Source of the DNA: Planctomycetota bacterium
GTDB lineage: Bacteria; Planctomycetota; UBA8108; UBA1146; JAJFFE01
NCBI GenBank assembly: GCA_050246115.1
Contig: JBFWWP010000004.1
Span: 98,521-162,520, forward strand
Direction of reading: 5' to 3'
DNA: 64,000 nucleotides
Shown here: piece by piece, positions 2,800-60,664 of the stretch
How the letters are laid out: every line of letters starts with the position of its first letter
Position numbering within the stretch: position 1 is the first letter of the stretch
Position numbers and translations under genes: made by a program
Notes under the pieces: generated by a model
What the model saw: only the letters and a program-made list of their open reading frames with translations
Told to the model about the DNA's origin: nothing
Database searches by the model: none

Positions 2800-5700
2800 T
2801 CAGGGGCATGCAGACTGCGCACACCCCAGAGCATCGGCTGTCGGGTCCGACCCGCAGGACGATGGTGGTGGTAGCGGGCCCGAGCTGAACAGGAAGCCGA
2901 GGATCGTGATCACGTCGGCGATGTTGCTCGCACCGTCGTCGTTGCCATCGCACGCATCCATGCACGGTGGCGTGGAGCCCGCCGCGAAAGTCGCGTTGAG
3001 CAGGAAGATCGCGTCGGAGATGTCGCGCCCGCCATCCGCGTTGCAGTCGCCCCGTAAGAAGTCGGCGTTGCCCACGATCGTGCCGAGGGCCCAATCGACG
3101 GCGCGATCGATCAGATCCCGAGCGACGGGCGTCACCTGCAGCCAGGTCGAGTCCTCGAGGAACAAGAAAACACGCCGCGCGGGAGCCGCATGCCCCCCGA
3201 ACAACGGAGCGCCGGAGTCGGCGACGAGCACCGCGGCTTCGGCGGGCACGCCAGCGCGCGACGCGAGGACCGTCGCGCCGATGGGAAACGGCGAGACACC
3301 GACACTCATGTTGGCGGCGGTCGTGAAGACGGCTTGTGGAATCCCGGTCACCAGCCCCTGCGTGATGGGATGCGGCGCCACGGTCACTTCGATCGCGTTG
3401 GCTCCGAACGCCACGGCCCCGGCGTTCGCGAGCGGCTCACGATCGGGACGTAGCAGCGCGCTCTCCCAGAACAGCAGCGGCACGGCCTCGTCGCGAAACT
3501 CCGCACCGACGTTGGCCGAGGTCACGGTCGAGGACACGATGACCAAGTCATGCGTGGCGGCCAGTGCAGCTGCAGATGGGCGGTTGGCGGGCTCGTCGTC
3601 GTACGCGAGCACTTCGAGGCCACGGGCCCGCAAGTGATCGGCGAACGCTTCGTCCGCTGGGGTCGGTGGGAGCGAGCCACCGATCATGCCGACCAGCGGA
3701 AAGTCGCCGACACGCACGAACGCGACCTTCTGGGTGGCGACGAGTCCGTTCGCGCCGCTCACCCGCAAGGTGACATCGTAGATGCCGTCCTGGGCATACA
3801 CATGGCTGGGATTCTGGAGCGCACTCATCGATCCGTCACCAAAGCTCCACTCCCAAGCGGTCGCAACCGGAACGGTCGACAGATCGGTGAACTGCACGTT
3901 CAAGGGCGCGAGGCCACTCGTGACGCTGGCCGCGAAGTCGACTGCGCCGACGTATTTGATGCGCAGGATGTGGGAGCCGACGGCGGTGGGTGAAGCAAAG
4001 TCCTGGTCTGCGTAGAAGTCACTGAAATACAGCCCGTCCGGGCCGGCGGCCAGCGCGACCGCCGTGGCCTTGCCGTTGCCGACATAGCTCACGAACGGTG
4101 TGGGACCACTGATCAACGTGCCAGTCGGACTCAGAACGTACTCGCGGATCTGCTTGCCGTTCGACTGAGCACCCGTGGCCCAAGTCGGCCCCGAGTCAGC
4201 GATGAAGGCGTGACCCTGCTTGTCCGCGGGGAACAGGCTGCCGCCGAAAGTTGCGCCTTGGATGAACGCGATGTTCGTGGGCCCCACCGCGGGCGCCCAG
4301 TTGAGGATCGCGAAGTTGGTCATGCTGTTGTCGGAGCCGTTCCAGAGGTAGTTCTGGCCGGGGCTGATCTTCGCGAAGCGATCGATGCTGGGCCCGTTTT
4401 CGACCTCGTAGAGCGCTCCATCGGCTGCGCGCCAAGCACCGCCGAACGGATTGCGCAACCCATAGGCATACACGTAGTCGGCGGCGTTGATGCCGTTGCC
4501 CGCGTCGTAGAACGGATTGTCCACCGGCGCGGTGCCGTCGAGTTCGAGTCGCAGGATCTTGCCGCGGAACGAGTTCAGGTTCTGGGCCGTGCCCGCGTCG
4601 AAGCCGTCGCCCATGTGAACGTACAGTTTGCCATCCGGTCCGAGGCTCAAATTCGAGATCTGGTGGGACTGCCCCTGCGACTCACCCACCATGTTCAGGA
4701 TCACGTTCTGTTGACTCGCGGTCAGGCCTCCGTCGGTGCTCGAGAAGCGCACGACCCGCGGGTAGTGCGGCCCGCCGGCGTCGGCGAGGAAGGCTGCGAA
4801 CACATCCCCCGAACTCGGTTCGACGACGATGCCGGTGAGTCCCTGCTCTCCGGATCCGGGGAAGAGACCGGTGGGCGAGAAGTTGAGGAGGTTCGTGGCA
4901 TAGTCGGTGACGGTCCCCGACTGGGTCACCACCTTGATCGTGCCATAGAGTTCGGTCACGTAGTAGAGCGGAGCATCGGGACCGATGCCCGGGTTGGGCA
5001 CGAACGCGATGTTGACCGGCAGTCGGAATCCGCTCGCCACGATCTCCACTCGGTACCCCGGCTGGTGCATCTGCCAAGGCACCGGAATCCCGCGCGCGAG
5101 AGTGGAGAAGTCCGGTTGCGTCTGAGTACTGGACCCAACGTACGTGGCACCGACGGCGGACACCCAAAAGTAGGCATCGCTACCGAGACCGACACTCACC
5201 GACGGCAGATAGACGGTGTGCATGGCACCATCGTGGTCGGTGAAGGAGAGATCGCTCTCGGGCAGCACCAGGCCAGGGCTCAATCCCCCCGCCGAGATCC
5301 GGATCCGTGTCGGCGTGTGGAACGGGAGTGCCGGCGGATTGGTCACGGCGTTCGTCGTCCCGTCGAACCCCTGGAGCGCGAGCAGCAAGCCGCCCGTCGC
5401 GGACTCGACGAAGACTCCAGGAGCCACGGTCGCACCGGCAAGCACGACAGGTTGCCCCGAAATGTCGATCCAGGTGGGTGCGGGGGCAACCGCGAGGTCG
5501 TCGAGCTCGAGCGGGAAGATCTCGGTGGGAGGGCCGGTCACGAAAGTACGCTCCGACCACGCACTCCACTCCCCGCCGCCCGGCGCGCTGTCGTCTCGGT
5601 GACGCACCTGGAGTCGATAATCGTTGTCGTAGAAGAGCTCGGTGCGACCGGCGTGAGAACCGCTGAAGACGCCGTCGCCGAGGTGAGTGTGCACCGCTTC

Positions 5701-5961
5701 GAGCCCGGTGATGCACAGCGTGCTCCACACCCGCTCGACTGGCGTCACGGACCAAATCTCCCAGTCGGTGCAGAAGTGCGCGTCCCCCGGGTCCGGATCT
5801 GCAAACGGAGCGGTCTCCATGTGAACGTCGGCGGGATTCACGACCTGGCCATTGGCGACGGGCTCATTGATCGTGGGGGCGTTGGGCGGAAGTGCCGAGA
5901 CGAGAGTCGTGGCGAACCAACCGATTGCCAAGACCGCTCGGCCGCAGAGCATCTTCGACAT
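2800..5961 (-). CDS. Secreted multidomain protein: signal peptide, PQQ-type glucose/sorbosone dehydrogenase-like beta-propeller, PKD domain, unassigned alpha/beta domain, C-terminal dockerin module + Cys-rich tail
   Basis: Start trimmed to the ATG at 5961 ('MSKMLCGRAVLAIGWFATTLVSALP' signal-like). The 'YAYGLRNPFG' and 'GQNYLWNG' motifs are typical of the soluble glucose/sorbosone dehydrogenase (GSDH) fold. The PKD-like stretch is 'LNVQFTDLS...WEWSFGDGS...HVYAQDGIYDVTLRVSGANG'. C-terminus: 'RGDCNADGGRDISDAIFLLNATFAAGSTPPCMDACDGNDDGASNIADVITILGFLFSSGPLPPPSSCGSDPTADALGCAQSACP', with two Ca-binding-loop-like DxNxDG repeats characteristic of dockerin. Confidence 0.75.
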   Translation of the reverse strand: MSKMLCGRAVLAIGWFATTLVSALPPNAPTINEPVANGQVVNPADVHMETAPFADPDPGDAHFCTDWEIWSVTPVERVWSTLCITGLEAVHTHLGDGVFSGSHAGRTELFYDNDYRLQVRHRDDSAPGGGEWSAWSERTFVTGPPTEIFPLELDDLAVAPAPTWIDISGQPVVLAGATVAPGVFVESATGGLLLALQGFDGTTNAVTNPPALPFHTPTRIRISAGGLSPGLVLPESDLSFTDHDGAMHTVYLPSVSVGLGSDAYFWVSAVGATYVGSSTQTQPDFSTLARGIPVPWQMHQPGYRVEIVASGFRLPVNIAFVPNPGIGPDAPLYYVTELYGTIKVVTQSGTVTDYATNLLNFSPTGLFPGSGEQGLTGIVVEPSSGDVFAAFLADAGGPHYPRVVRFSSTDGGLTASQQNVILNMVGESQGQSHQISNLSLGPDGKLYVHMGDGFDAGTAQNLNSFRGKILRLELDGTAPVDNPFYDAGNGINAADYVYAYGLRNPFGGAWRAADGALYEVENGPSIDRFAKISPGQNYLWNGSDNSMTNFAILNWAPAVGPTNIAFIQGATFGGSLFPADKQGHAFIADSGPTWATGAQSNGKQIREYVLSPTGTLISGPTPFVSYVGNGKATAVALAAGPDGLYFSDFYADQDFASPTAVGSHILRIKYVGAVDFAASVTSGLAPLNVQFTDLSTVPVATAWEWSFGDGSMSALQNPSHVYAQDGIYDVTLRVSGANGLVATQKVAFVRVGDFPLVGMIGGSLPPTPADEAFADHLRARGLEVLAYDDEPANRPSAAALAATHDLVIVSSTVTSANVGAEFRDEAVPLLFWESALLRPDREPLANAGAVAFGANAIEVTVAPHPITQGLVTGIPQAVFTTAANMSVGVSPFPIGATVLASRAGVPAEAAVLVADSGAPLFGGHAAPARRVFLFLEDSTWLQVTPVARDLIDRAVDWALGTIVGNADFLRGDCNADGGRDISDAIFLLNATFAAGSTPPCMDACDGNDDGASNIADVITILGFLFSSGPLPPPSSCGSDPTADALGCAQSACP

Positions 5962-6210
5962 GGGAACCTCTCGTGTTGCGTGACCCGTCGCTCCAACCCG
6001 CAAGTACGAAGCCGCTGCTCTCGCGGTAGGCGGCTATCATGAGCACTGCCGCCCACGGCAACCACAGGCTCGTCGGCGGAGCGGCTCGATCCCGGCGGGC
6101 GTGGATCGAAATGGCCGCCCGCGTACCCCGAAATCCGCGATCCTTCGTGGCCGCGCGGTGCTACAACAGTACTCCCGGAGACGACCCTGACTCAACTACG
6201 GAGTTTACCC

Positions 6211-7416
6211 ATGCACCGAGATGTCCGCCTGGTCCTGATGAATGTCGTCGTGACTTGCATCCTTCTCTGGCTCGGCTCGACCTTCTTCGGCGGGACCGGG
6301 GTGGCTCTGCCGACCGCCCCCGCCCCCGGAATCTTCGTGTGGGGGGATGCCAACTGTGACGGTTCGCTCAACATCTCCGATCCAGTGACGATTCTGGGCT
6401 ATCTGTTCAGCTCGGCGCCGCTGCCTCCGGCATGCGCGCAATCCTTCTTCGCGCCGGACCAACTCGCTACCTTGCAGGAGATCCTCCCACACCTGAGCCG
6501 CGTGGAACTCGACGACGGCCTTGGCGGGACGGTCCCGACGATCCGCCTGACCGGAGTCAACCTGCAGATCGTGAACGGCTCGGGCGCGACCAACGGCAAT
6601 CCGGCAAGTCCAAACAGCGTAAACGGCATGACGAACGGGACCGGCAACTTGATCGTTGGCTACAACGAGTTCGGCACCGGCGGCAACAACCGCACGGGAT
6701 CTCACAACCTGGTCGTGGGCTCGGCGCTGCAGTACGAGCGTTGGGGCGGAGCGGTCTTGGGGCAGGGGAACGTCATCCGCGGCGCGTGGTCGAGCGTGAC
6801 CGGCGGGAACGCCAACACCGCCATCGGGGACTACGCCGCGATCACCGGCGGTCTCAACAACGAAGCTGCCGGCGACTACTCGTCGATTTCGGGTGGGCAG
6901 TTCAATGCCTCGAGCGGAGACATCGGTTGGGTCGGCGGCGGCAATGCCAACGAGGCCGCAGGAGTCGAGTCGTGCGTGTCGGGGGGAGCCAGCAACACGG
7001 CCCTCGGCGCCGCCTCCGCGGTGAGCGGCGGCGAGTTCAACAGTGCGGACGGTGACCGAGCCAGCGTGGCGGGTGGCAGAGCGAACAGCGCGGTTGGGCT
7101 CGGTGCCGTGGTCGTCGGCGGCCAAGACAACTTCGCGGGTGGCGTGCGAGCGGCGGTGTTCGGCGGGCAACGCAACGAGGCCGACGGAACCGCCGCGGTC
7201 GTGGTGGGTGGCGGCGGACCGGATCCGTTCCTGGACGGCAACCGCGCGCTCGGCGACTGGTCGGTGATCACGGGCGGACGCCAAAATGACGCGACTGGCA
7301 ACGGCTCGACCGTCGGCGGTGGACGTCAGAACGTCACCGCTCCCACCGCCGAGTACTCGGTGGTGGCAGGCGGCTGTTTGGAAACGACGTTCAGCCCGTG
7401 CGAGCTTGCCCCGTAG
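6211..7416 (+). CDS. Secreted repeat protein: N-terminal signal/TM, a single dockerin-like half-repeat, then ~14-residue 'GG-x-N-x-A-x-G' tandem repeats (YadA-head / tail-fibre-like)
   Basis: ATG at 6211 with GGAG 7 nt upstream. N-terminus: 'GDANCDGSLNISDPVTILGYLFSSAPLPPAC'. Then 'SVTGGNANTAIGDYAAITGGLNNEAAGDYSSISGGQFNASSGDIGWVGGGNANEAAGVESCVSGGASNTALGAASAVSGGEFNSADGDRASVAGGRANSAVG...'. Ends 'GGCLETTFSPCELAP'. Confidence 0.6.
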   Translation: MHRDVRLVLMNVVVTCILLWLGSTFFGGTGVALPTAPAPGIFVWGDANCDGSLNISDPVTILGYLFSSAPLPPACAQSFFAPDQLATLQEILPHLSRVELDDGLGGTVPTIRLTGVNLQIVNGSGATNGNPASPNSVNGMTNGTGNLIVGYNEFGTGGNNRTGSHNLVVGSALQYERWGGAVLGQGNVIRGAWSSVTGGNANTAIGDYAAITGGLNNEAAGDYSSISGGQFNASSGDIGWVGGGNANEAAGVESCVSGGASNTALGAASAVSGGEFNSADGDRASVAGGRANSAVGLGAVVVGGQDNFAGGVRAAVFGGQRNEADGTAAVVVGGGGPDPFLDGNRALGDWSVITGGRQNDATGNGSTVGGGRQNVTAPTAEYSVVAGGCLETTFSPCELAP

Positions 7417-10703: not shown

Positions 10704-12380
10704 ATGAGGTCTTGGAGCATGTGGGCAGTTCTCATCGCAGGCTTCGGCTGGGGCACCCCCCTCCTCGGCCAGCCCGGTACCACGATCATCACCCATGGCT
10801 TCCAGTTGGACGGCGTGCTCCCGGCGTGGCCCGCGGTCATGGGTGCCGCGATGGCGCAGCTTCCCCAAGCCGCCGCGCCCACGGGCACCGTCCTCGTGTA
10901 CGACCCGAGCACCGGCGCGTGGTCTCCCGTGTTCGGTTCCGGAGACCCTACCGGGGAGATCGTCTTGATCTTCGACTGGGCCGACGACTCGTCGTGGTTT
11001 CCCGGCGACGACGATCGGCAGGGAACCGCTCATGGGGCGGCCGCCGCCCTCTACGGCGCGCTCCGTGCCCCGCACATTAGCGGCGCCCCGGCAATGACGA
11101 GCTTTCTCGCATGGCCGGGAGGTGCACCTCGACGACTCCACTTCCTGGGCCACAGTCGTGGGACCTGCGTGAACAGCGAGGTAGTTCGTCGACTGGTGGT
11201 CGCGGGCTACACGGTAGACCACGTCACGACGCTGGATCCTCACCCCGTTGGACCGGTGGCCGATCTCCTTGACCCGCAGCCGACCACTTGGGTTGGTGTG
11301 AACTGGGCCGACAACTACTTTCGTCAGGATGACTGTGACCTCGACTACGGTTGTTTCGGGTTCGACTTCGATGGTCAGCAGATCATCGGTGCCGCGAACC
11401 ACGACCTCGGGCTCGACGCCTTCGGACTGATCGACAACCGCCTGAACAGTTGCAGCTTGGAGCACTCCTTGGTGCACACCTGGTATCACGGCACGATCGA
11501 TACCGCGACGGCGTCGGACGGCGACTGTCCGGTCGAGCGTGCCAACTGGTACTTCGCGGGGGGGGTCGGCGAAGGTTACGCCTTCTCGCAGGTCGCGGGT
11601 GGAGCCTCGCAACGTCCCTGTGGTCCGAGCGGCGGGTGCGCGGACGCGGGACGCACCGTCGCGACGCCAGCGTCCCCGATCATCAACGGCGACTTCGAGT
11701 TCGGGGCATTCCAGGACGCGGGATGGCGCTGGCACGGTGGCGGCGGCCCAGGGCGGATCATCGAGGAATCCGGGAACTCCTTCCTGACCCTCGACTCCAC
11801 GGGGCCGTCGCGGACTCACAGTCGTTTCTACCTGGACGTCTTCGCAACGAACCTGCAGTACGACCTACGGGTGTTCGCGCCGGGGGCCGCAGCTTCCTTG
11901 GTGATCACGTTGAGAGAAGCCGGATCGCTCGTCGACCTGCTCATCGACAGCGTCCCGCTCTCGTCTTCGACGTCCTGGAGCGCTCGCAGCGTTGACCTGA
12001 CCAGCATCCCCAAGGGGCGGCTCTACTCGCTGACGGTAGCGCTCACGCCCGCCAACACCTTGGCCATTGCCGACCTGGACGAGTTCGGCCTCGAGTTCGC
12101 GGCCGGACCGCAGTTCTGGCGCGGCGACTGCAACGGCGACGGCGCCATCGATCTCGCCGACGCCGTGGCGGCGCTCAGCGCCTTGTTTGGAGCCGGTGGC
12201 CCGCCGCCTTGTGGCGTCGCTTGCGACGCGAACGACGACGGCACGTTCGACGTGGCCGATGCGGTCTCGACCCTGCTCGCGCTCTTCGGATCGGCGGGTC
12301 CGCTACCGCCCCCCAGTGTCGGCTGCGGACCCGACCCGACCGCAGATGCGCTGGATTGCGCAAACCCGACCTGCCCATGA
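10704..12380 (+). CDS. Secreted alpha/beta-hydrolase (lipase-like, GHSRG nucleophile elbow) with beta-sandwich region and C-terminal dockerin module + Cys-rich tail
   Basis: ATG 10704 with AAGG upstream. Signal-like N-terminus. 'LHFLGHSRGTCV' matches GxSxG. C-terminus: 'FWRGDCNGDGAIDLADAVAALSALFGAGGPPPCGVACDANDDGTFDVADAVSTLLALFGSAGPLPPPSVGCGPDPTADALDCANPTCP'. Confidence 0.75.
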   Translation: MRSWSMWAVLIAGFGWGTPLLGQPGTTIITHGFQLDGVLPAWPAVMGAAMAQLPQAAAPTGTVLVYDPSTGAWSPVFGSGDPTGEIVLIFDWADDSSWFPGDDDRQGTAHGAAAALYGALRAPHISGAPAMTSFLAWPGGAPRRLHFLGHSRGTCVNSEVVRRLVVAGYTVDHVTTLDPHPVGPVADLLDPQPTTWVGVNWADNYFRQDDCDLDYGCFGFDFDGQQIIGAANHDLGLDAFGLIDNRLNSCSLEHSLVHTWYHGTIDTATASDGDCPVERANWYFAGGVGEGYAFSQVAGGASQRPCGPSGGCADAGRTVATPASPIINGDFEFGAFQDAGWRWHGGGGPGRIIEESGNSFLTLDSTGPSRTHSRFYLDVFATNLQYDLRVFAPGAAASLVITLREAGSLVDLLIDSVPLSSSTSWSARSVDLTSIPKGRLYSLTVALTPANTLAIADLDEFGLEFAAGPQFWRGDCNGDGAIDLADAVAALSALFGAGGPPPCGVACDANDDGTFDVADAVSTLLALFGSAGPLPPPSVGCGPDPTADALDCANPTCP

Positions 12381-45434: not shown

Positions 45435-46691
45435 CTACGGACAGGCGAGGTACGGCGCGGTCGGGTCGGTTCCCGGGGAAGGAAATGGTGCGGCCGGCGG
45501 CACTCCCTCGAGAAACAGGTAGGTGCCGAGGCTCACCGCGTCCGAGATCTGGACCTTGGCGTTGTCATCGACATCGAGCGCGGCGACACAGGGAGGTGAC
45601 GGCATGGCTCCGGTCGCGACGAGCGCTAGCACGACGAGGTCGGAGAGGTCGAGGTGGAGATCGTCGTTCGCGTCCCCCCGCAAGAAGGGGCGCTGGGGAA
45701 TGATCTCGATCACACCGTTCATGAGGAGCGGGCTCACCGACTGCAGATCGATCACGAAGACGTTCTGCACCGGCGGAGTCCCGAAGCCGTCCTCGAGAGT
45801 CACCGCGACCTCGCTCACGGCGATCGCTTCCGGTCGAACCGCGACGACCAGTTGGGCGATGGTCTGAGCCTGTCCGATCGGCGGGATCGACTGGGAATCG
45901 AACGGCGGTAGCAGGTCGAGCAGGATCCCCACCACGAAAGTGCCGAGGGCGTTGTCGATGTTGGCTTCGAAGAACTCCGCGCCCACCGCTTCGGTGATGG
46001 TGCCGTCGATGGTCACGTCTTGACCGATCACGTACGCGGTGTCGAACGCTCCCGAAATCGAGAGTCCTTGAAGATCGTCGGTGTTCACGGCCATGAGCGG
46101 CACCCGGTGACCCTCGACGCCGATTCCGGCCACGGAGTCTCCAACGAAGAGGATGTTTTCATCCGTAACTTCGATCGATCCGTTCGCCACGGCCGCGGGG
46201 ATCTCGACTCCCGCAGCGAGAGCCATGTTGGGCAGGTCACCGGGCGTCGTGCGAAAGTCGACGAACACCAGCGTGCCTGGACTGAGGCCGTTCTCGATCT
46301 CCAGCCTGAGGGTGGCAACCCCCTGGTCCACGCCAACCGGGATCAGGTCGTCGAACGGCGCCAGACTGTCGAGCAGGGAGGTCACGTCGACATGCCCGGC
46401 GCTCGGGTCCACCATGATCCACTGAATCTCCGGGTCGACGCCTGCCAGAACGTCCGCGAGTTCGAAGCCAACGTAGTTCGCCTTGAACGCGTCGTAAGCC
46501 ATCGCGACCTGAAACCCATGGAGCGGGGTCACCGTCGTTACGGTGAGGGGAACCGCGGCGATCGCACCCGGGTAGGTCGTGACTTCCCCGAGTCGAAACT
46601 CGAGGTCTTGTGCACCCACGAAAGCGGGCAGCACACAAGAAACCACGAAGACGGTGCGTGGAACGAGCAGACGCAGTCCTTGGGTGGGCAT
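45435..46691 (-). CDS. Scaffoldin-like secreted protein: signal peptide + two cohesin-like domains + C-terminal dockerin module
   Basis: Trimmed to the ATG at 46691 ('MPTQGLRLLVPRTVFVVSCVLPAFVGAQ'). Domain 1: '...GAIAAVPLTVTTVTPLHGFQVAMAYDAFKANYVGFEL...LVFVDFRTTPGDLPNMALAAGVEIPAAVANGSIEVT'. Domain 2: '...GHRVPLMAVNTDDLQGLSISGAFDTAYVIG...VFVIDLQSVSPLLMNGVIEI'. Then 'RGDANDDLHLDLSDLVVLALVATGAMPSPPCVAALDVDDNAKVQISDAVSLGTYLFLEGVPPAAPFPSPGTDPTAPYLACP'. Confidence 0.65.
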   Translation of the reverse strand: MPTQGLRLLVPRTVFVVSCVLPAFVGAQDLEFRLGEVTTYPGAIAAVPLTVTTVTPLHGFQVAMAYDAFKANYVGFELADVLAGVDPEIQWIMVDPSAGHVDVTSLLDSLAPFDDLIPVGVDQGVATLRLEIENGLSPGTLVFVDFRTTPGDLPNMALAAGVEIPAAVANGSIEVTDENILFVGDSVAGIGVEGHRVPLMAVNTDDLQGLSISGAFDTAYVIGQDVTIDGTITEAVGAEFFEANIDNALGTFVVGILLDLLPPFDSQSIPPIGQAQTIAQLVVAVRPEAIAVSEVAVTLEDGFGTPPVQNVFVIDLQSVSPLLMNGVIEIIPQRPFLRGDANDDLHLDLSDLVVLALVATGAMPSPPCVAALDVDDNAKVQISDAVSLGTYLFLEGVPPAAPFPSPGTDPTAPYLACP

Positions 46692-47440
46692 TGATTGGAG
46701 TCTCCGCTGGGCACTTGGATCCTCCGGGGAAAGCAGTCTCGGTTCAACCGGAGGGGTGGTGCGAGGTCGTTGGGACCGAAGGTCGCGCAAGCGCCCGATC
46801 ATACTGCCGATGCGGGGCCGCGCCAACGTCCTGGACGAATTGACGGTCGGAGGCTCCCGAAGCCGAAGCAGTACGTCGGTCTCGCGCGGCAGCGATGGGG
46901 TGGGTAAGGGACGGAAGCAGAGTGACCGAGGCAGGCGGACCGGAACCAAAAATGGGGGAAGCCCACGAACTCCGGAAGCCCAATCAATGCCCGCCGATGT
47001 GGACCTCTTCGTGACTTCCCCCCCAAGAAAACAGTGCTCCGTTAGCAAGCCAACATCCACATCGGAAGACTATTCATAAGCCAAACTTTGAACTTCTCTT
47101 AGGAACACATCCCGAAATCATCAGAGTCCCCGACGACTCAAATCCGAGCACACGGACCCAGGGATCTCCCTGATGTCGCCGGTGAGGCGCGGACAGGAAA
47201 TCTCCAAGACCTGAAATATTCAGTGCTTAATCGTCGCATACTCAATGCGACGAGACGCGTCGAAACACGACAAGCGACGCCGTTTGGCCCCGGGAAACGA
47301 AGTGAACGGTGCGCTGATTCGTGGCACCGGGTCCCGGACGGGTACGAAATGGACGCGGGTAAGCCACCGTCGGTAGGCGGCCCTTCGGAGGCCCCTGCGG
47401 GAGAATCGGGCTCGACGCCGATGGGGTAAGCGTCGGCCGG

Positions 47441-57751: not shown

Positions 57752-60589
57752 CTACGGACACGGCGGGAAGCTGTTGCAACCCAGACCATCGTTGGTCGGA
57801 TCCGGTCCGCAGATCGGGAACGGCGCCGGCGGCGGAGCTCCGCCACTGAACAGGAACGCGAGGTTCCAGATCGCATCGGCGATGTTCAGATTGCCGTCGT
57901 CGTTCGAGTCGCACGCATCGTCGCACACCGGCGGAGCGGGCACGGTGCCACCGGGGAACAGGAACCCGAGCAATCGGATCCCGTCGGCGATGTCGACCAC
58001 GCCGTCCGCGTTGCAGTCGCCACGAATCAGAGCCTGCACGCCAACAACGGCTTGCGCGGCGGACAACGTGGGATCGTGCTGCGCGGACATGCCTGGATCG
58101 TGGAAACCCGACTGGACCGGGGTATGCACCGCGGAGTGGATCGGGTTGTGGGCCGCGGAGGCCATCGGATCGTGAACCACGGAGAACGACGGATCATGGA
58201 TCGCAGAGTCACCAGCGCTGTGCATGCTGGTCCAGAACGGATCGTGGATCGTCGAAGTCAGCGGCCCGTGCAGCGCACTCTCACCGGGGATGTGAACGCT
58301 CGAGACGCCCGGATTGTGGGTCGCGGACAAGCCCGGATCATGCTGCGCCGAGTTGAACGGCGAGTGTACCGACGACGTGAGCGGATCGTGGTTCGCGGAC
58401 AGCGCCGCGTCGTGGACCACCGACTGCGCGGGGTCGTGCTGCGCCGAAGCCGCCGGATCGTGCATGCCGGACCAGTGAGGATCGTGCACGGTCGAGGTCA
58501 GCGGATTGTGCAACACGCTGTTGGCTGCGTCGTGAACCGACGAGATCGCCGGGTCGTGCGTACCCGAGACCGTCGGGTCGTGCTGATTCGAATTGAACGG
58601 CGAGTGCACGACGCTGATGGACGGATCGTGCTGCGTCGACGTGGTCGCGTCGTGAACGTTGGAGCGGGCCGGGTCGTGAACGACCGACTGCGTGGGATCG
58701 TGCTGCATCGACCAGAACGGGTCGTGCGTGTTCGATCCCAGTGGGTCGTGCTGACCCGACAAGGTCGGCACGTGCACCGTCGAGACCGCCGGGTCGTGGA
58801 TGTCGGACGCCAACGGCCGGTGGACTCCGGACATCAGCGGCGCGTGCACACCGGACACCAACGGATCGTGGTGGTTCGAGTTGAACGGCGAGTGCACCGC
58901 ACTCACCACGGGTACGTGGACTTGCGACAGTCCCGGCTCGTGGATGTTGGTGGTCACCGGGTTGTGGAACTGCGACAACGAGGGGTCGTGTTGCGACGAC
59001 CAGAACGGGTCGTGCACCGCCGAGTTGAACGGGTTGTGGTTGCTGCTGATCCCCGGCTCGTGGATCGGCGAGATCGTCGGGTTGTGGAACGACGACACGC
59101 TCGGACTATGCGTCACCGACTGATCCGGAGCATGGAAGATCGAGTTCAGCACCGGGTGCGAGCCCGACACGAGCGGATCGTGCTGCGACGACAGGGTCGG
59201 AGCATGGAACGGCGACAGCGCCGGGTCGTGTTGGCTCGAGACGAACGGATCGTGTTGAGCCGACATGACCGGAGAGTGCACGGTCGACACTACGGGGTCG
59301 TGCTGCGCGGTCAGGGCCGGGTCGTGCACCGCCGACAAGTTGGGATTGTGCGTCGACGAATCCGCGGCGGTGTGCATGCCGGTCCAGTGAGGATCGTGGA
59401 CGAGCGAGGTCGATGCAATGTGCTGAGAGCTCGGCCCCGGCAAGTGGACGCCGGACACGAACGGGTCGTGGCCGGACCCCGACAAGTTGGGGTTGTGGGC
59501 CGAGAAGGTCGGGTCGTGGCCCGTGGCCGTCAGCATGGGATCGTGCAAGGGCGACAGCGTCGCGTCGTGCTGGCTGGTCACCACTGGGTCGTGGATCGGC
59601 GAGATCGACGGATCGTGCATCGAGGTCCACAACGGATCATGCAGCTGCGAGAACTCCGGCGGGTGAGCTTGGCTCATGCCGGGATCATGCAACGGCGACA
59701 AGCCCGGCACGTGCACCTGCGACACGAACGGCTCGTGCTGGTCGGAGCGAATCGGCGCGTGCATGACCGAAGTCAGCGGCTGGTGCGTGTTGGTCATGGT
59801 CGGATCGTGGACGATCGACTGAGCGGGGTCGTGGGTGCTGGAGATCGCCGTGTCGTGCATGGACGACCAGAACGGGTCGTGGATGTCCGACGTCAGCGGG
59901 TTGTGCAGGCTGCTGCTGGCCGGATCGTGGATCGAGGAGGTCACGGGATCGTGAGTGCCGGACGTCGCGGCGTCGTGCTGCGCCGAGACCATCGGTGCGT
60001 GTACCGATGAGTCGAACGGCTGGTGCACCATCGACTGGTTCGGGTTGTGCAGGATCGACGCCGCGGGTTCGTGGATCGCGGACTGGGCTGCCGTGTGCAT
60101 GCCGGTCCAGTGGGGATCGTGCACATCCGAGGTCAACGGGTTGTGGAGCGTGCTGCTGCCGGGGTCGTGCACGGCGGAGATCGCCGGATCGTGGCCGGTC
60201 GACACGCTCGGGTCGTGCTGCTGGGAGGTCAGCGGTGAGTGGACCGCAGAGTCCAGCGGCGCGTGAATCGGCGACAGGTCTGGATCGTGCAGAATCGACA
60301 CCGCCGGGTCGTGCAACGCCGAGTTCGTGGCCGTGTGCATGCCCGACCAAACCACGTCATGGATGGTCGACGTCAGGGGGTTGTGCAGGGCGCTCTCGCC
60401 CGGGATGTGGACGACCGAAAGCGCTGGGTCGTGCTGAACCGACATCGCCGGATCGTGCTGCGCCGAAGCGCCGGGGTCGTGCAACACCGACGCCACTGGG
60501 TCGTGCGTGGTTTGTGCAAACGAATGCGAGGGCACGCATGCGGCAAACGCGCATACGACTCCCGCGATCACGAGACACTTGCGAAGCAT
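57752..60589 (-). CDS. Secreted protein consisting of ~100 tandem octapeptide repeats (consensus H-D-P-x-x-S-x-x) followed by a C-terminal dockerin module + Cys-rich tail
   Basis: Trimmed to 'MLRKCLVIAGVVCAFAACVPSHSFAQ' (signal peptide) at 60589. Residues ~29-850: 'HDPVASVL HDPGASAQ HDPAMSVQ HDPALSVV ...'. C-terminus: 'LIRGDCNADGVVDIADGIRLLGFLFPGGTVPAPPVCDDACDSNDDGNLNIADAIWNLAFLFSGGAPPPAPFPICGPDPTNDGLGCNSFPPCP'. Confidence 0.8.
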   Translation of the reverse strand: MLRKCLVIAGVVCAFAACVPSHSFAQTTHDPVASVLHDPGASAQHDPAMSVQHDPALSVVHIPGESALHNPLTSTIHDVVWSGMHTATNSALHDPAVSILHDPDLSPIHAPLDSAVHSPLTSQQHDPSVSTGHDPAISAVHDPGSSTLHNPLTSDVHDPHWTGMHTAAQSAIHEPAASILHNPNQSMVHQPFDSSVHAPMVSAQHDAATSGTHDPVTSSIHDPASSSLHNPLTSDIHDPFWSSMHDTAISSTHDPAQSIVHDPTMTNTHQPLTSVMHAPIRSDQHEPFVSQVHVPGLSPLHDPGMSQAHPPEFSQLHDPLWTSMHDPSISPIHDPVVTSQHDATLSPLHDPMLTATGHDPTFSAHNPNLSGSGHDPFVSGVHLPGPSSQHIASTSLVHDPHWTGMHTAADSSTHNPNLSAVHDPALTAQHDPVVSTVHSPVMSAQHDPFVSSQHDPALSPFHAPTLSSQHDPLVSGSHPVLNSIFHAPDQSVTHSPSVSSFHNPTISPIHEPGISSNHNPFNSAVHDPFWSSQHDPSLSQFHNPVTTNIHEPGLSQVHVPVVSAVHSPFNSNHHDPLVSGVHAPLMSGVHRPLASDIHDPAVSTVHVPTLSGQHDPLGSNTHDPFWSMQHDPTQSVVHDPARSNVHDATTSTQHDPSISVVHSPFNSNQHDPTVSGTHDPAISSVHDAANSVLHNPLTSTVHDPHWSGMHDPAASAQHDPAQSVVHDAALSANHDPLTSSVHSPFNSAQHDPGLSATHNPGVSSVHIPGESALHGPLTSTIHDPFWTSMHSAGDSAIHDPSFSVVHDPMASAAHNPIHSAVHTPVQSGFHDPGMSAQHDPTLSAAQAVVGVQALIRGDCNADGVVDIADGIRLLGFLFPGGTVPAPPVCDDACDSNDDGNLNIADAIWNLAFLFSGGAPPPAPFPICGPDPTNDGLGCNSFPPCP
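58045..60505. repeat. 24-bp in-frame tandem repeat array (coding for the HDPxxSxx octads), ~100 units, with a 240-bp super-period
   Basis: On the plus strand 'ggatcgtg' (reverse complement of CAC-GAT-CC = His-Asp-Pro) recurs every 24 nt. The Trp-containing octads (HDPxW[ST][GS]M) recur about every 10 units. Confidence 0.85.
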
Positions 60590-60664
60590 GGAATACCTCC
60601 TCCTCTTTCCTCGTGAACCGCGGCGACGTCCGACAAGGACGAGCGCGCGAGGTCCACGCATCGG

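Follow-up and report, generated by a model that had tools for sequence, protein, structure and literature searches.

The cysteine-rich C-terminal tail of Planctomycetota dockerins is a conserved segment of the module and probably an extended, covalent form of the dockerin clasp

Our data indicate that the cysteine-rich tail carried by four dockerin-like proteins of a Planctomycetota bacterium is the conserved final segment of a very large dockerin subfamily of uncultured Planctomycetota, and not a sorting tag. This subfamily has apparently not been described so far. In our best reading, which we consider probable, the tail represents the 'intramolecular clasp' known from dockerins, here in a longer and covalent version; judged from the sequences, it is as if one to three disulfide bonds pinned the tail segment onto the dockerin core. 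All coordinates given below refer to the window, that is, the whole stretch of 64,000 nucleotides analysed.

An earlier note on this DNA had claimed four dockerin proteins ending in such a tail, and all four tails were found, each corresponding to the final 14–20 codons plus the stop codon of a long ORF (4/4). Specifically, module 1 (2800..3066, minus strand), in a 6-Cys form, constitutes the C-terminus of a 1067-aa GSDH+PKD protein (ORF 2800-6003) and comprises two F-hand Ca2+ loops, helices, a PxPP linker and the tail SCGSDPTADALGCAQSACP (2800-2859, minus strand). Its cysteine codons map, on the minus strand, to 3043-3045 (C1), 2962-2964 (C2), 2950-2952 (C3), 2854-2856 (C4), 2821-2823 (C5) and 2806-2808 (C6), with the stop codon at 2800-2802. 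Two further 6-Cys modules were found: module 2 (12105..12380, plus strand), which closes a 558-aa secreted protein (ORF 10704-12380) with the tail GCGPDPTADALDCANPTCP (12321-12380, plus strand), and module 3 (57752..58036, minus strand), at the C-terminus of a 969-aa HDPxxSxx-repeat protein (ORF 57752-60661), with the tail ICGPDPTNDGLGCNSFPPCP (57752-57814, minus strand). Module 4 (45435..45692, minus strand) is a 2-Cys form located at the C-terminus of a cohesin-bearing protein (ORF 45435-47060); it ends in the tail SPGTDPTAPYLACP (45435-45479, minus strand) and keeps C2 ('PPC') and C5 ('LAC'), while C1, C3, C4 and C6 are missing. A signal-peptide-like start could be read in all four protein sequences.

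The tail follows the pattern CGxDPTxDxLxC-x4-5-CP in three of these proteins and the short form PGxDPTxxxLxCP in the remaining one. Translated in all six frames, the window contains [CP]GxDPT just 4 times, each time directly 3' of a dockerin-like module, and an HMM scan of the same six frames returned exactly 4 full modules, with the tail in 4/4, together with one half-module lacking it (6301-6435, plus strand). Because pairwise identity among the four window modules is only 41–57%, they are not recent copies of one another.

As to the identity of the core, the modules show two tandem F-hand Ca2+ loops (D-x-N/D-x-D-G…D) with helices, and among 604 modules conservation of the loop residues D/N/D/G/D amounts to 74–100% in each of the two repeats. 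Taken singly, the window modules reach 14–21 bits with Pfam Dockerin_1, under the gathering cut-off of 22.9 (module 2, for instance, gives E 4e-4 and 20.9 bits), and the family profile matches about 13 solved dockerins with E 5e-7 to 1e-3. The core matches solved type I dockerins, and fold searches returned bacterial dockerins only. In NCBIfam, no family covers the module, and a 'GC-type dockerin' model gave no match. The statement that canonical dockerins do not carry such a tail was borne out, as PDB dockerins align to the core alone, both by sequence profile and by fold. The bacterial type I dockerin (Pfam PF00404; for instance C. thermocellum Cel48S/Xyn10B, PDB 2mte, 1ohz, 4fl4) ends soon after helix 3 and is Cys-free, whereas the Planctomycetota module adds a conserved extension of about 25 residues, PxPFPxCGxDPTxDxLxCx4-5C, and up to six covarying cysteines. 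In addition, the hosts differ from those of type I dockerins, being Gram-negative Planctomycetota of mostly aerobic habitats, with cargo that is not cellulolytic.

The co-occurrence of tail and dockerin, which the earlier note had proposed to check, was surveyed in 79 related MAG loci with a tail-blind HMM of the dockerin core, containing no tail columns. This core-only HMM detected 157 full modules, and the motif was found behind almost all of them, in loci and alignments that had been seeded with tail-containing queries. C-terminal modules carried the strict 3-Cys tail in 93/157 cases, other, mostly degenerate, Cys-containing tails in 27/157 and a 1-Cys tail in 15/157, while 20/157 modules were not C-terminal and 2/157 ran off the contig end. 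When only the evaluable modules not used for fetching the loci were considered (n=76), a cysteine lay within 38 residues past the core in 75 and a GxDPT-like motif was present in 62. Most of the 20 non-C-terminal modules sit directly after the signal peptide and still display CGxDPTxDxLxC…C, followed by up to about 1,000 more residues; moreover, in tandem multi-module proteins the motif also appears behind internal modules. Hence the 'strict terminal position' formerly ascribed to the tail holds within the window but not across the family, where N-terminal and internal copies exist.

Conservation points in the same direction: among the 604 modules, the tail positions P (.96), G (.91), D (.94), P (.78), T (.81), D (.85), L (.78) and C (.94) are conserved on a par with the Ca2+-loop residues. 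The family comprises at least 29,000 sequence clusters (E <= 1e-10, 50% identity).

By position, the cysteines fall into three pairs, one within the core (C1–C3), one within the tail (C4–C6) and one that connects the inter-repeat linker with the tail (C2–C5). In the 604 modules, and without proper phylogeny correction, covariation was found for C1–C3 (OR 242, p 2e-66), C2–C5 (OR 138, p 2e-63) and C4–C6 (OR 541, p 2e-97). The main cysteine states were xCxxCx (203 modules), xCxCCC (119), no Cys (93) and CCCCCC (48). Even states (0, 2, 4 or 6 cysteines) account for 463/604 modules and the cysteines are gained and lost as specific pairs, as would be expected of a disulfide-stabilised domain. On a similarity tree of the modules, taken as a proxy for phylogeny, C1 and C3 changed jointly on 71 edges and alone on 20 and 16, C4 and C6 changed jointly on 81 edges and alone on 34 and 39, and 19 of the 21 C2 changes had a C5 change alongside. 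Changes of C5 only were frequent (82 edges), probably as a result of tail misalignment.

These data also modify the picture of a conserved 'PPC…ACD' cysteine couple lying between the two Ca2+ loops: both cysteines are present in 3/4 window modules, and the 45435-47060 protein has the first one only. The pairing of the two with each other, as the earlier description implied, did not hold, since 'PPC' goes with the tail 'LxC' and 'AC-D' goes with the cysteine of the first Ca2+ loop ('GDC-N'). C2 and C3 were rejected as a pair on account of their weak association (OR 3.4) and of a joint change on one tree edge only. The cysteine of the first Ca2+ loop had been absent from the earlier note. On the other hand, the idea of a 'disulfide-stapled cap' is supported by the three covarying pairs in the 604 modules and by AF2 models, in which the tail is confidently predicted and packed against the core. 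Taking covariation together with the DSSP bridge positions of these models, we infer that C2–C5, C4–C6 and C1–C3 would be the disulfide-bonded pairs.

The AF2 models reached a pLDDT of 95.5 for the 6-Cys form and 94.7 for the 2-Cys module 4, with tail blocks at 83–95 and helices at 16-27 and 49-61. In the 2-Cys model, F3 and the tail G74 are the sole two residues assigned to a β-bridge by DSSP, while the bridge residues of the 6-Cys model are F3, C35 (C2), G72 and C82 (C5). In classical dockerins, the N- and C-termini are held together by a non-covalent clasp, which is known to confer stability and to support cohesin binding; residues just before the conserved N-terminal Gly touch Pro-rich C-terminal residues, thereby stabilising the Ca2+-bound fold (Slutzki et al. 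2013, PMC3821032). The Planctomycetota module is predicted to make a similar contact: among the residues at -1 to -3 before the conserved Gly, it is the Phe at -3 (F3), nearly invariant in the family, that would bridge with the tail Gly (G74 or G72), which comes after the PxPFP segment. Known clasps, however, consist of one non-covalent contact each, by stacking, hydrophobic interaction or a salt bridge, whereas the Planctomycetota clasp is longer by a whole conserved segment and, as far as the models indicate, apparently covalent through the C2–C5 disulfide.

The following architecture can be proposed on this basis. The tail would be the integral last 25 residues or so of the Planctomycetota-type dockerin module: past the second F-hand helix, the chain would make a proline-rich turn (PxPFP) and then return along the module as G-x-D-P-T-x-D-x-L-x-C. 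The tail Gly, itself conserved, would pair with the Phe of the F-x-R-G-D sequence at the N-terminus, at the site of the known dockerin clasp, and C5 ('LxC') would form a disulfide with the nearly invariant C2 ('PPC') of the linker between the Ca2+-binding repeats, tying the tail covalently to the core. Two optional disulfides may be added, C4–C6, closing a loop of about 16 residues inside the tail, and C1–C3, between the first Ca2+ loop and the beginning of the second. In such a dockerin, one to three disulfides would hold the fold and both termini in place, with a putative stabilising role, and this lock would suit Sec-exported proteins in an oxidising periplasm or exterior. Candidate cargo in the window includes a PQQ-type dehydrogenase+PKD protein, the 558-aa secreted protein, the HDP-repeat protein and a two-cohesin adaptor. 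The 558-aa protein (ORF 10704-12380) gave no family match.

An alternative view, which we regard as unlikely, is that the extension is mainly a recognition element on the cohesin-binding surface, with the 2-, 4- and 6-Cys variants encoding cohesin specificities, as between type I and type II, and with scaffoldin-borne modules using the short form. The only cohesin-bearing protein of the window is indeed 2-Cys, against three 6-Cys cargo proteins, and, among the multi-module representatives, those bearing cohesin show a mild enrichment of the 1-Cys tail (OR 1.8, p 0.008). That representative set is, however, biased to tandem-module proteins and the statistic ignores relatedness; in the MAG loci no association was observed (4/46 vs 13/108, p 0.78), and the 1-Cys tail was consequently discarded as a mark of scaffoldin-borne dockerins. 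Furthermore, the cohesin contacts of classical dockerins sit on the helices, which are intact here.

A second alternative, in which the D-P-T-x-D segment and/or the cysteines would serve as an additional metal site, for a third Ca2+ or of a Zn type with Cys ligands, instead of forming disulfides, appears very improbable. The D, T and D at segment positions 1, 3 and 5, conserved at 81–94%, resemble half an EF-hand loop, but the strict pairwise gain and loss of cysteines, with the 2-Cys state as the commonest, fits disulfides in exported proteins better.

Finally, the tail as a C-terminal sorting or processing signal for a dedicated protease or transpeptidase, after the likeness of PEP-CTERM/exosortase, LPXTG/sortase, GlyGly-CTERM/rhombosortase or the MYXO-CTERM type, is a tempting but wrong lead, with next to no probability left, and was removed: the 4/4 window tails lie at the extreme C-terminus and, of 199 C-terminal 3-Cys tails, 155 stop exactly one residue past the last Cys (0–1 residue in 173/199) and 121 finish in Cys-Pro, but a stop one residue past C6 is what is expected of a domain boundary, the position is not obligatorily C-terminal, the motif standing behind N-terminal or internal modules (20/157 in the loci, and many tandem-module proteins), the tail lacks a basic cluster as well as any hydrophobic or transmembrane stretch, its cysteines covary with a core Cys, and a Pfam scan of roughly 30 window ORFs detected no member of the sortase, exosortase or rhombosortase families. 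The non-terminal copies of the motif alone speak against this idea and were the ground for its rejection.

Cohesin-like domains gave 61 jackhmmer matches in the loci and the window, often within one protein together with the dockerin; cohesin homologues co-occur with dockerin both at 45702-46607 of the window and in 40+ proteins of the loci. The 45435-47060 protein contains two of them on the minus strand, cohesin-like module 1 (46161..46607; jackhmmer match at reading-frame residues 155-303), which is a putative type of docking partner, and cohesin-like module 2 (45702..46136; jackhmmer and family profile). A cohesin family profile (A3) matches solved cohesins with E 2e-6 (1g1k, 2vn5, 5lxv), while cohesin-like module 1 matches Pfam Cohesin weakly (E 0.035); a word-based search for homologues of the cohesin-like module gave no hit. 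Presumably, the dockerin-like module docks cargo onto the cohesin-like modules of the same genomes, with which it co-occurs.

More tentatively, the modules might represent a distinct, covalently clasped dockerin type underlying a vast and essentially unstudied surface cohesin–dockerin system of Planctomycetota (many proteins having both domains, and no fewer than 29,000 clusters at 50% identity), in which the DPTxD segment and the grades of 2, 4 and 6 Cys could modulate the stability of the module, its specificity for a partner or an extra metal site. If so, the docking module would be oxidation-dependent and mechanically locked, in contrast to its clostridial counterparts, which depend on Ca2+ only. 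The fungal dockerins of Neocallimastigomycota are known as small docking modules of secreted enzymes, rich in cysteine and disulfide-bonded; these are, however, not homologous to bacterial dockerins and are devoid of F-hand Ca2+ repeats. For the freshwater Phycisphaerae, an assembly model termed 'Planctosome' has been proposed from domain annotation (Andrei et al. 2019, PMC6461901). It resembles the present case in dealing with non-cellulosomal cohesin and dockerin modules of Planctomycetes and with non-cellulolytic cargo, but describes no Cys-rich dockerin extension. Our literature search found no description of a disulfide-clasped dockerin.

Research on cohesin–dockerin pairs has so far centred on the Cys-free modules of anaerobic Firmicutes, and the data presented here depict a very large dockerin family, in Planctomycetota of aerobic habitats, with a conserved and probably disulfide-locked extension. 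They bring into view many Planctomycetota surface proteins of unknown function that combine cohesin and dockerin, and provide annotation with a precise domain boundary and a signature, current Pfam and NCBIfam models missing the modules or scoring them under threshold. The proposed disulfide connectivity is concrete and directly checkable and, for protein engineering, naturally stapled docking modules are candidate parts.

A minor observation concerns the YadA-head-like protein (ORF 6211-7416), whose end GGCLETTFSPCELAP had been described as related to the tail. No kinship between the two was detectable; the module HMM matches this protein only near its N-terminus, at a single F-hand half-dockerin devoid of a GxDPT tail (6301..6435, plus strand; GDANCDGSLNISD…LFSSAPLPPAC), which covers HMM profile positions 26-71 only, with E 8e-7.

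The four Cys-rich tails (CGxDPTxDxLxC-x4-5-CP) that the earlier note had described at the ends of dockerin proteins were all confirmed in position, each abutting a stop codon. Specifically, SCGSDPTADALGCAQSACP (2800-2859, minus strand) ends an ORF of 1067 aa (2800-6003), GCGPDPTADALDCANPTCP (12321-12380, plus strand) an ORF of 558 aa (10704-12380), ICGPDPTNDGLGCNSFPPCP (57752-57814, minus strand) an ORF of 969 aa (57752-60661) and SPGTDPTAPYLACP (45435-45479, minus strand) the cohesin-bearing, scaffoldin-like protein of 541 aa (45435-47060). A pattern scan for [CP]GxDPT over the six reading frames of the whole window returned four occurrences only, all at these tails; the observation is genuine and lies far outside chance expectation. 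Every tail is preceded by a module of ~62 residues with two D-x-N-x-D-G…D loop-helix repeats; counted together with the tail, there are six Cys in three cases and two Cys in the cohesin-bearing protein. Since the pairwise identity among the four aligned modules is only 41–57%, they are paralogues that have diverged, rather than recent copies.

When an HMM of the four modules was run against the six-frame translation, the four full modules and one half-module were found. The latter, a single F-hand 'half-dockerin' (6301-6435, plus strand; profile positions 26-71 only), lies in the N-terminal part of the YadA-head-like ORF 6211-7416 and reads GDANCDGSLNISD…LFSSAPLPPAC, followed by Gly/Asn/Ala-rich repeats (…GG.N.A.G…). 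The same scan gave no match at the two-Cys C-terminus of this ORF (GGCLETTFSPCELAP), leaving its proposed kinship with the tail unsupported. As the G+C content of the window is 66%, nearly all real genes are overlaid by long spurious ORFs in another frame or on the complementary strand, e.g. 4210-6042 (plus strand) over 2800-6003 (minus strand), and ORF length alone is therefore no evidence for a gene here.

The window modules score 14–21 bits against Pfam Dockerin_1, below its cut-off of 22.9, and NCBIfam reported nothing relevant for the module. A 124-member family profile matched solved type I dockerins (2y3n_B, 2mte, 1daq, 4fl4 and others) with E values from 5e-7 to 1e-3; these alignments end with the second helix, and the tail is covered by no solved chain. 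The AlphaFold2 model of the module at 2800..3066 (minus strand), built on the 124-member alignment, reached a pLDDT of 95.5 overall (92, 95 and 89 for the tail blocks) and a pTM of 0.86. On the strength of the profile matches and the confident model, we conclude that the core is a true but divergent dockerin, and the tail an addition without structural precedent in the PDB.

The 538 matches of a word-indexed search are largely fragments; they come from Planctomycetota MAGs and metagenomes and are annotated as 'hypothetical protein' or 'dockerin type I domain-containing protein'. Among the best 120 of these, the strict three-Cys tail is terminal in 58, and 19 more carry a looser tail, including a short one-Cys form (PGxDPTxDxLxC). 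When 1.84 billion cluster representatives were searched exhaustively with a profile, 52,825 proteins passed E ≤ 1e-3, 29,385 passed E ≤ 1e-10 and 4,520 passed E ≤ 1e-30; the top matches hold 2–12 modules apiece. Among species-representative genomes, 411 stretches could be confirmed, and 79 loci were retrieved. Almost all of these belong to uncultured Planctomycetota MAGs, in which the module is present in many copies; the labels of a few read Eisenbacteria, 'Proteobacteria' or 'Bacillota'. In this sampling, which was seeded with tail-bearing queries, the tail is the normal end of a very large, apparently undescribed dockerin subfamily. No description of a Cys-stapled dockerin extension was found in the full-text literature, the coverage of which is incomplete, so that absence is no proof; disulfides in a 2025 cellulosome review are engineered links only.

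Locus L015 (QNYK01000107.1, 'Bacillota bacterium MAG 7') is near-identical in gene order and tail sequences to L017 (Planctomycetota XB_MAG1214), and the 'Proteobacteria bacterium' MAG (L005, L011, L013, L063) carries the Planctomycetota-type module in many copies. The taxonomic labels of these 'Bacillota' and 'Proteobacteria' MAGs are probably wrong.

In the full form, the Cys residues are numbered C1 (GDC-N), C2 (PPC), C3 (AC-D), C4 (CG-DPT), C5 (LxC) and C6 (C-P). The 124-sequence alignment shows C2 in every member and C5 in almost every one; the presence of C1 goes with that of C3 (p 4e-23), and the presence of C4 with that of C6 (p 6e-16). With Cys-free relatives included (604 modules), the best partner is unambiguous for each of the six: C1–C3 (OR 242, p 2e-66), C2–C5 (OR 138, p 2e-63) and C4–C6 (OR 541, p 2e-97). 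The main Cys states all have even counts (xCxxCx 203, xCxCCC 119, none 93, CCCCCC 48). On a minimum-spanning tree computed from the core columns other than the Cys positions, a crude proxy for phylogeny that corrects only roughly for relatedness, joint switches of C1 and C3 fall on 71 edges, against 20 and 16 edges where one of them switches alone. For C4 and C6 there are 81 edges with joint switches and 34 and 39 with single ones, and a C5 switch accompanies 19 of the 21 C2 switches; cross-pairs are far less coupled. Paired co-occurrence and even states therefore point to a family graded by its putative disulfides, with 0, 1, 2 or 3 per module. The first step of this series, C2–C5, would be a staple joining the inter-repeat linker to the tail.

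Of the two readings proposed for the tail, the disulfide-stapled cap is thus supported by Cys covariation and by confident models, its disulfides being putative; what did not stand is the wiring of 'PPC…AC' as one Cys pair, since by covariation C2 partners C5 and C3 partners C1. In the AlphaFold2 model of the two-Cys module (pLDDT 94.7; tail at 87 and 83), F3 and G74 are the only two β-bridge residues, which pairs the nearly invariant Phe (position -3 relative to the conserved Gly) with the Gly conserved in the tail. The bridge residues of the six-Cys model (F3, C35 (C2), G72 and C82 (C5)) are compatible with an F3–G72 bridge plus the predicted C2–C5 contact. In classical dockerins, stability and cohesin binding depend on an 'intramolecular clasp' of residues -1 to -3 with C-terminal residues, often Pro (Slutzki 2013, PMC3821032); compared with it, the Planctomycetota-type extension looks like a longer, putatively covalently locked version. 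Oxidative folding is plausible, as all four window dockerin proteins have a signal-peptide-like start.

The second reading, a C-terminal sorting or processing signal, is refuted by the same motif following N-terminal and internal modules. A core-only HMM, from which the tail columns were left out, found 157 full modules in the six-frame translation of the 79 loci. Terminal modules ended in the strict three-Cys tail (93/157), in other Cys-containing tails, mostly degenerate three-Cys and a few minimal …PGCP* (27/157), or in a one-Cys tail (15/157); two ran off the contig end, and 20 were followed by more than 45 residues. Most of these 20 lie directly after a signal peptide (e.g. …LLLLCLTPALSAQ/SFLRGDCNADTG…), and N-terminal modules retain …CGTDPTADALGCISYPC… before 150 to about 1,000 further residues. 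Among 76 non-seed evaluable modules, 75 have a Cys within 38 residues past the core and 62 a GxDPT-like motif. Tandem arrays in multi-module representatives show the motif behind internal modules as well, and a minority of modules lack any Cys, resembling the classical form. Nor does the tail contain a hydrophobic or basic stretch, and in 173 of 199 terminal tails the protein ends 0–1 residue past the last Cys (Pro follows it in 121), so that the end looks like a domain boundary. Tail conservation in the 604 modules (P.96, G.91, D.94, P.78, T.81, D.85, L.78, C.94) equals that of the Ca2+ ligands, which likewise argues against a signal. No sortase- or exosortase-like enzyme was seen among the window genes scanned. 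In a few modules, at L008 5426-7777 (minus), L013 8260-10914 (minus) and L068 3507-4448 (plus), the tail is minimal: the protein stops at …PxPFPNPGCP*, immediately past the proline turn, and this end has one Cys but lacks the DPTxDxL segment.

As for partners, the 45435-47060 protein contains two modules of ~150 residues with a weak Pfam Cohesin match (E 0.035) and no match by phmmer in the PDB. A local jackhmmer search of the fetched loci and the window gave 61 related cohesin-like domain matches in 40+ proteins, often just upstream of a dockerin module, and a 24-sequence profile matched solved cohesins (1g1k, 2vn5, 5lxv, 5nrm) at E 2e-6. These matches and the co-occurrence with dockerins therefore indicate a putative cohesin–dockerin system with non-cellulolytic cargo, docking being predicted from homology and co-occurrence. 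This is consistent with mentions of such modules for Planctomycetes in previous work (Andrei 2019 'planctosome', PMC6461901; MetaSort 2017, PMC5264255). Between the short-tail form and cohesin-bearing, scaffoldin-like proteins no association showed up across the loci (p 0.78); the representative set, which is biased, gave a weak one (OR 1.8, p 0.008). L015 1-7192 and L017 1-7196 (plus strand) each hold five consecutive genes, every one of them encoding 1-3 cohesin-like modules plus a C-terminal dockerin-like module, a tandem array whose protein products could polymerise, and one protein of L059 (2479-6276) has five cohesin-like modules.

In the GSDH-like protein (2800-6003, minus strand), neither the N-terminal ~340 residues ahead of the GSDH domain nor residues ~770-975 (about 200, from PKD to the dockerin module) matched Pfam. 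Other window genes are typical of Planctomycetota (DUF1559/N-methyl prepilin-like protein, secretin, SecA, KdtA, ECF sigma/anti-sigma pair). The secretin gene (PF00263; 28299-31123, minus strand) adjoins the DUF1559/N-terminal-methylation prepilin-like gene, a type II secretion/pilus-like pairing typical of the phylum, through which the dockerin proteins might be exported. The cargo part of the secreted protein 57752-60661 (minus strand) consists of about 100 tandem octapeptides H-D-P-x-x-S-x-x (in the 93 clean units of 8 residues, H is present in 100%, P in 86% and S in 94%); its sole Pfam match, to the 'Cornifin' repeat, is spurious, and it may be a surface protein, either fibrous or His-rich and metal-binding.
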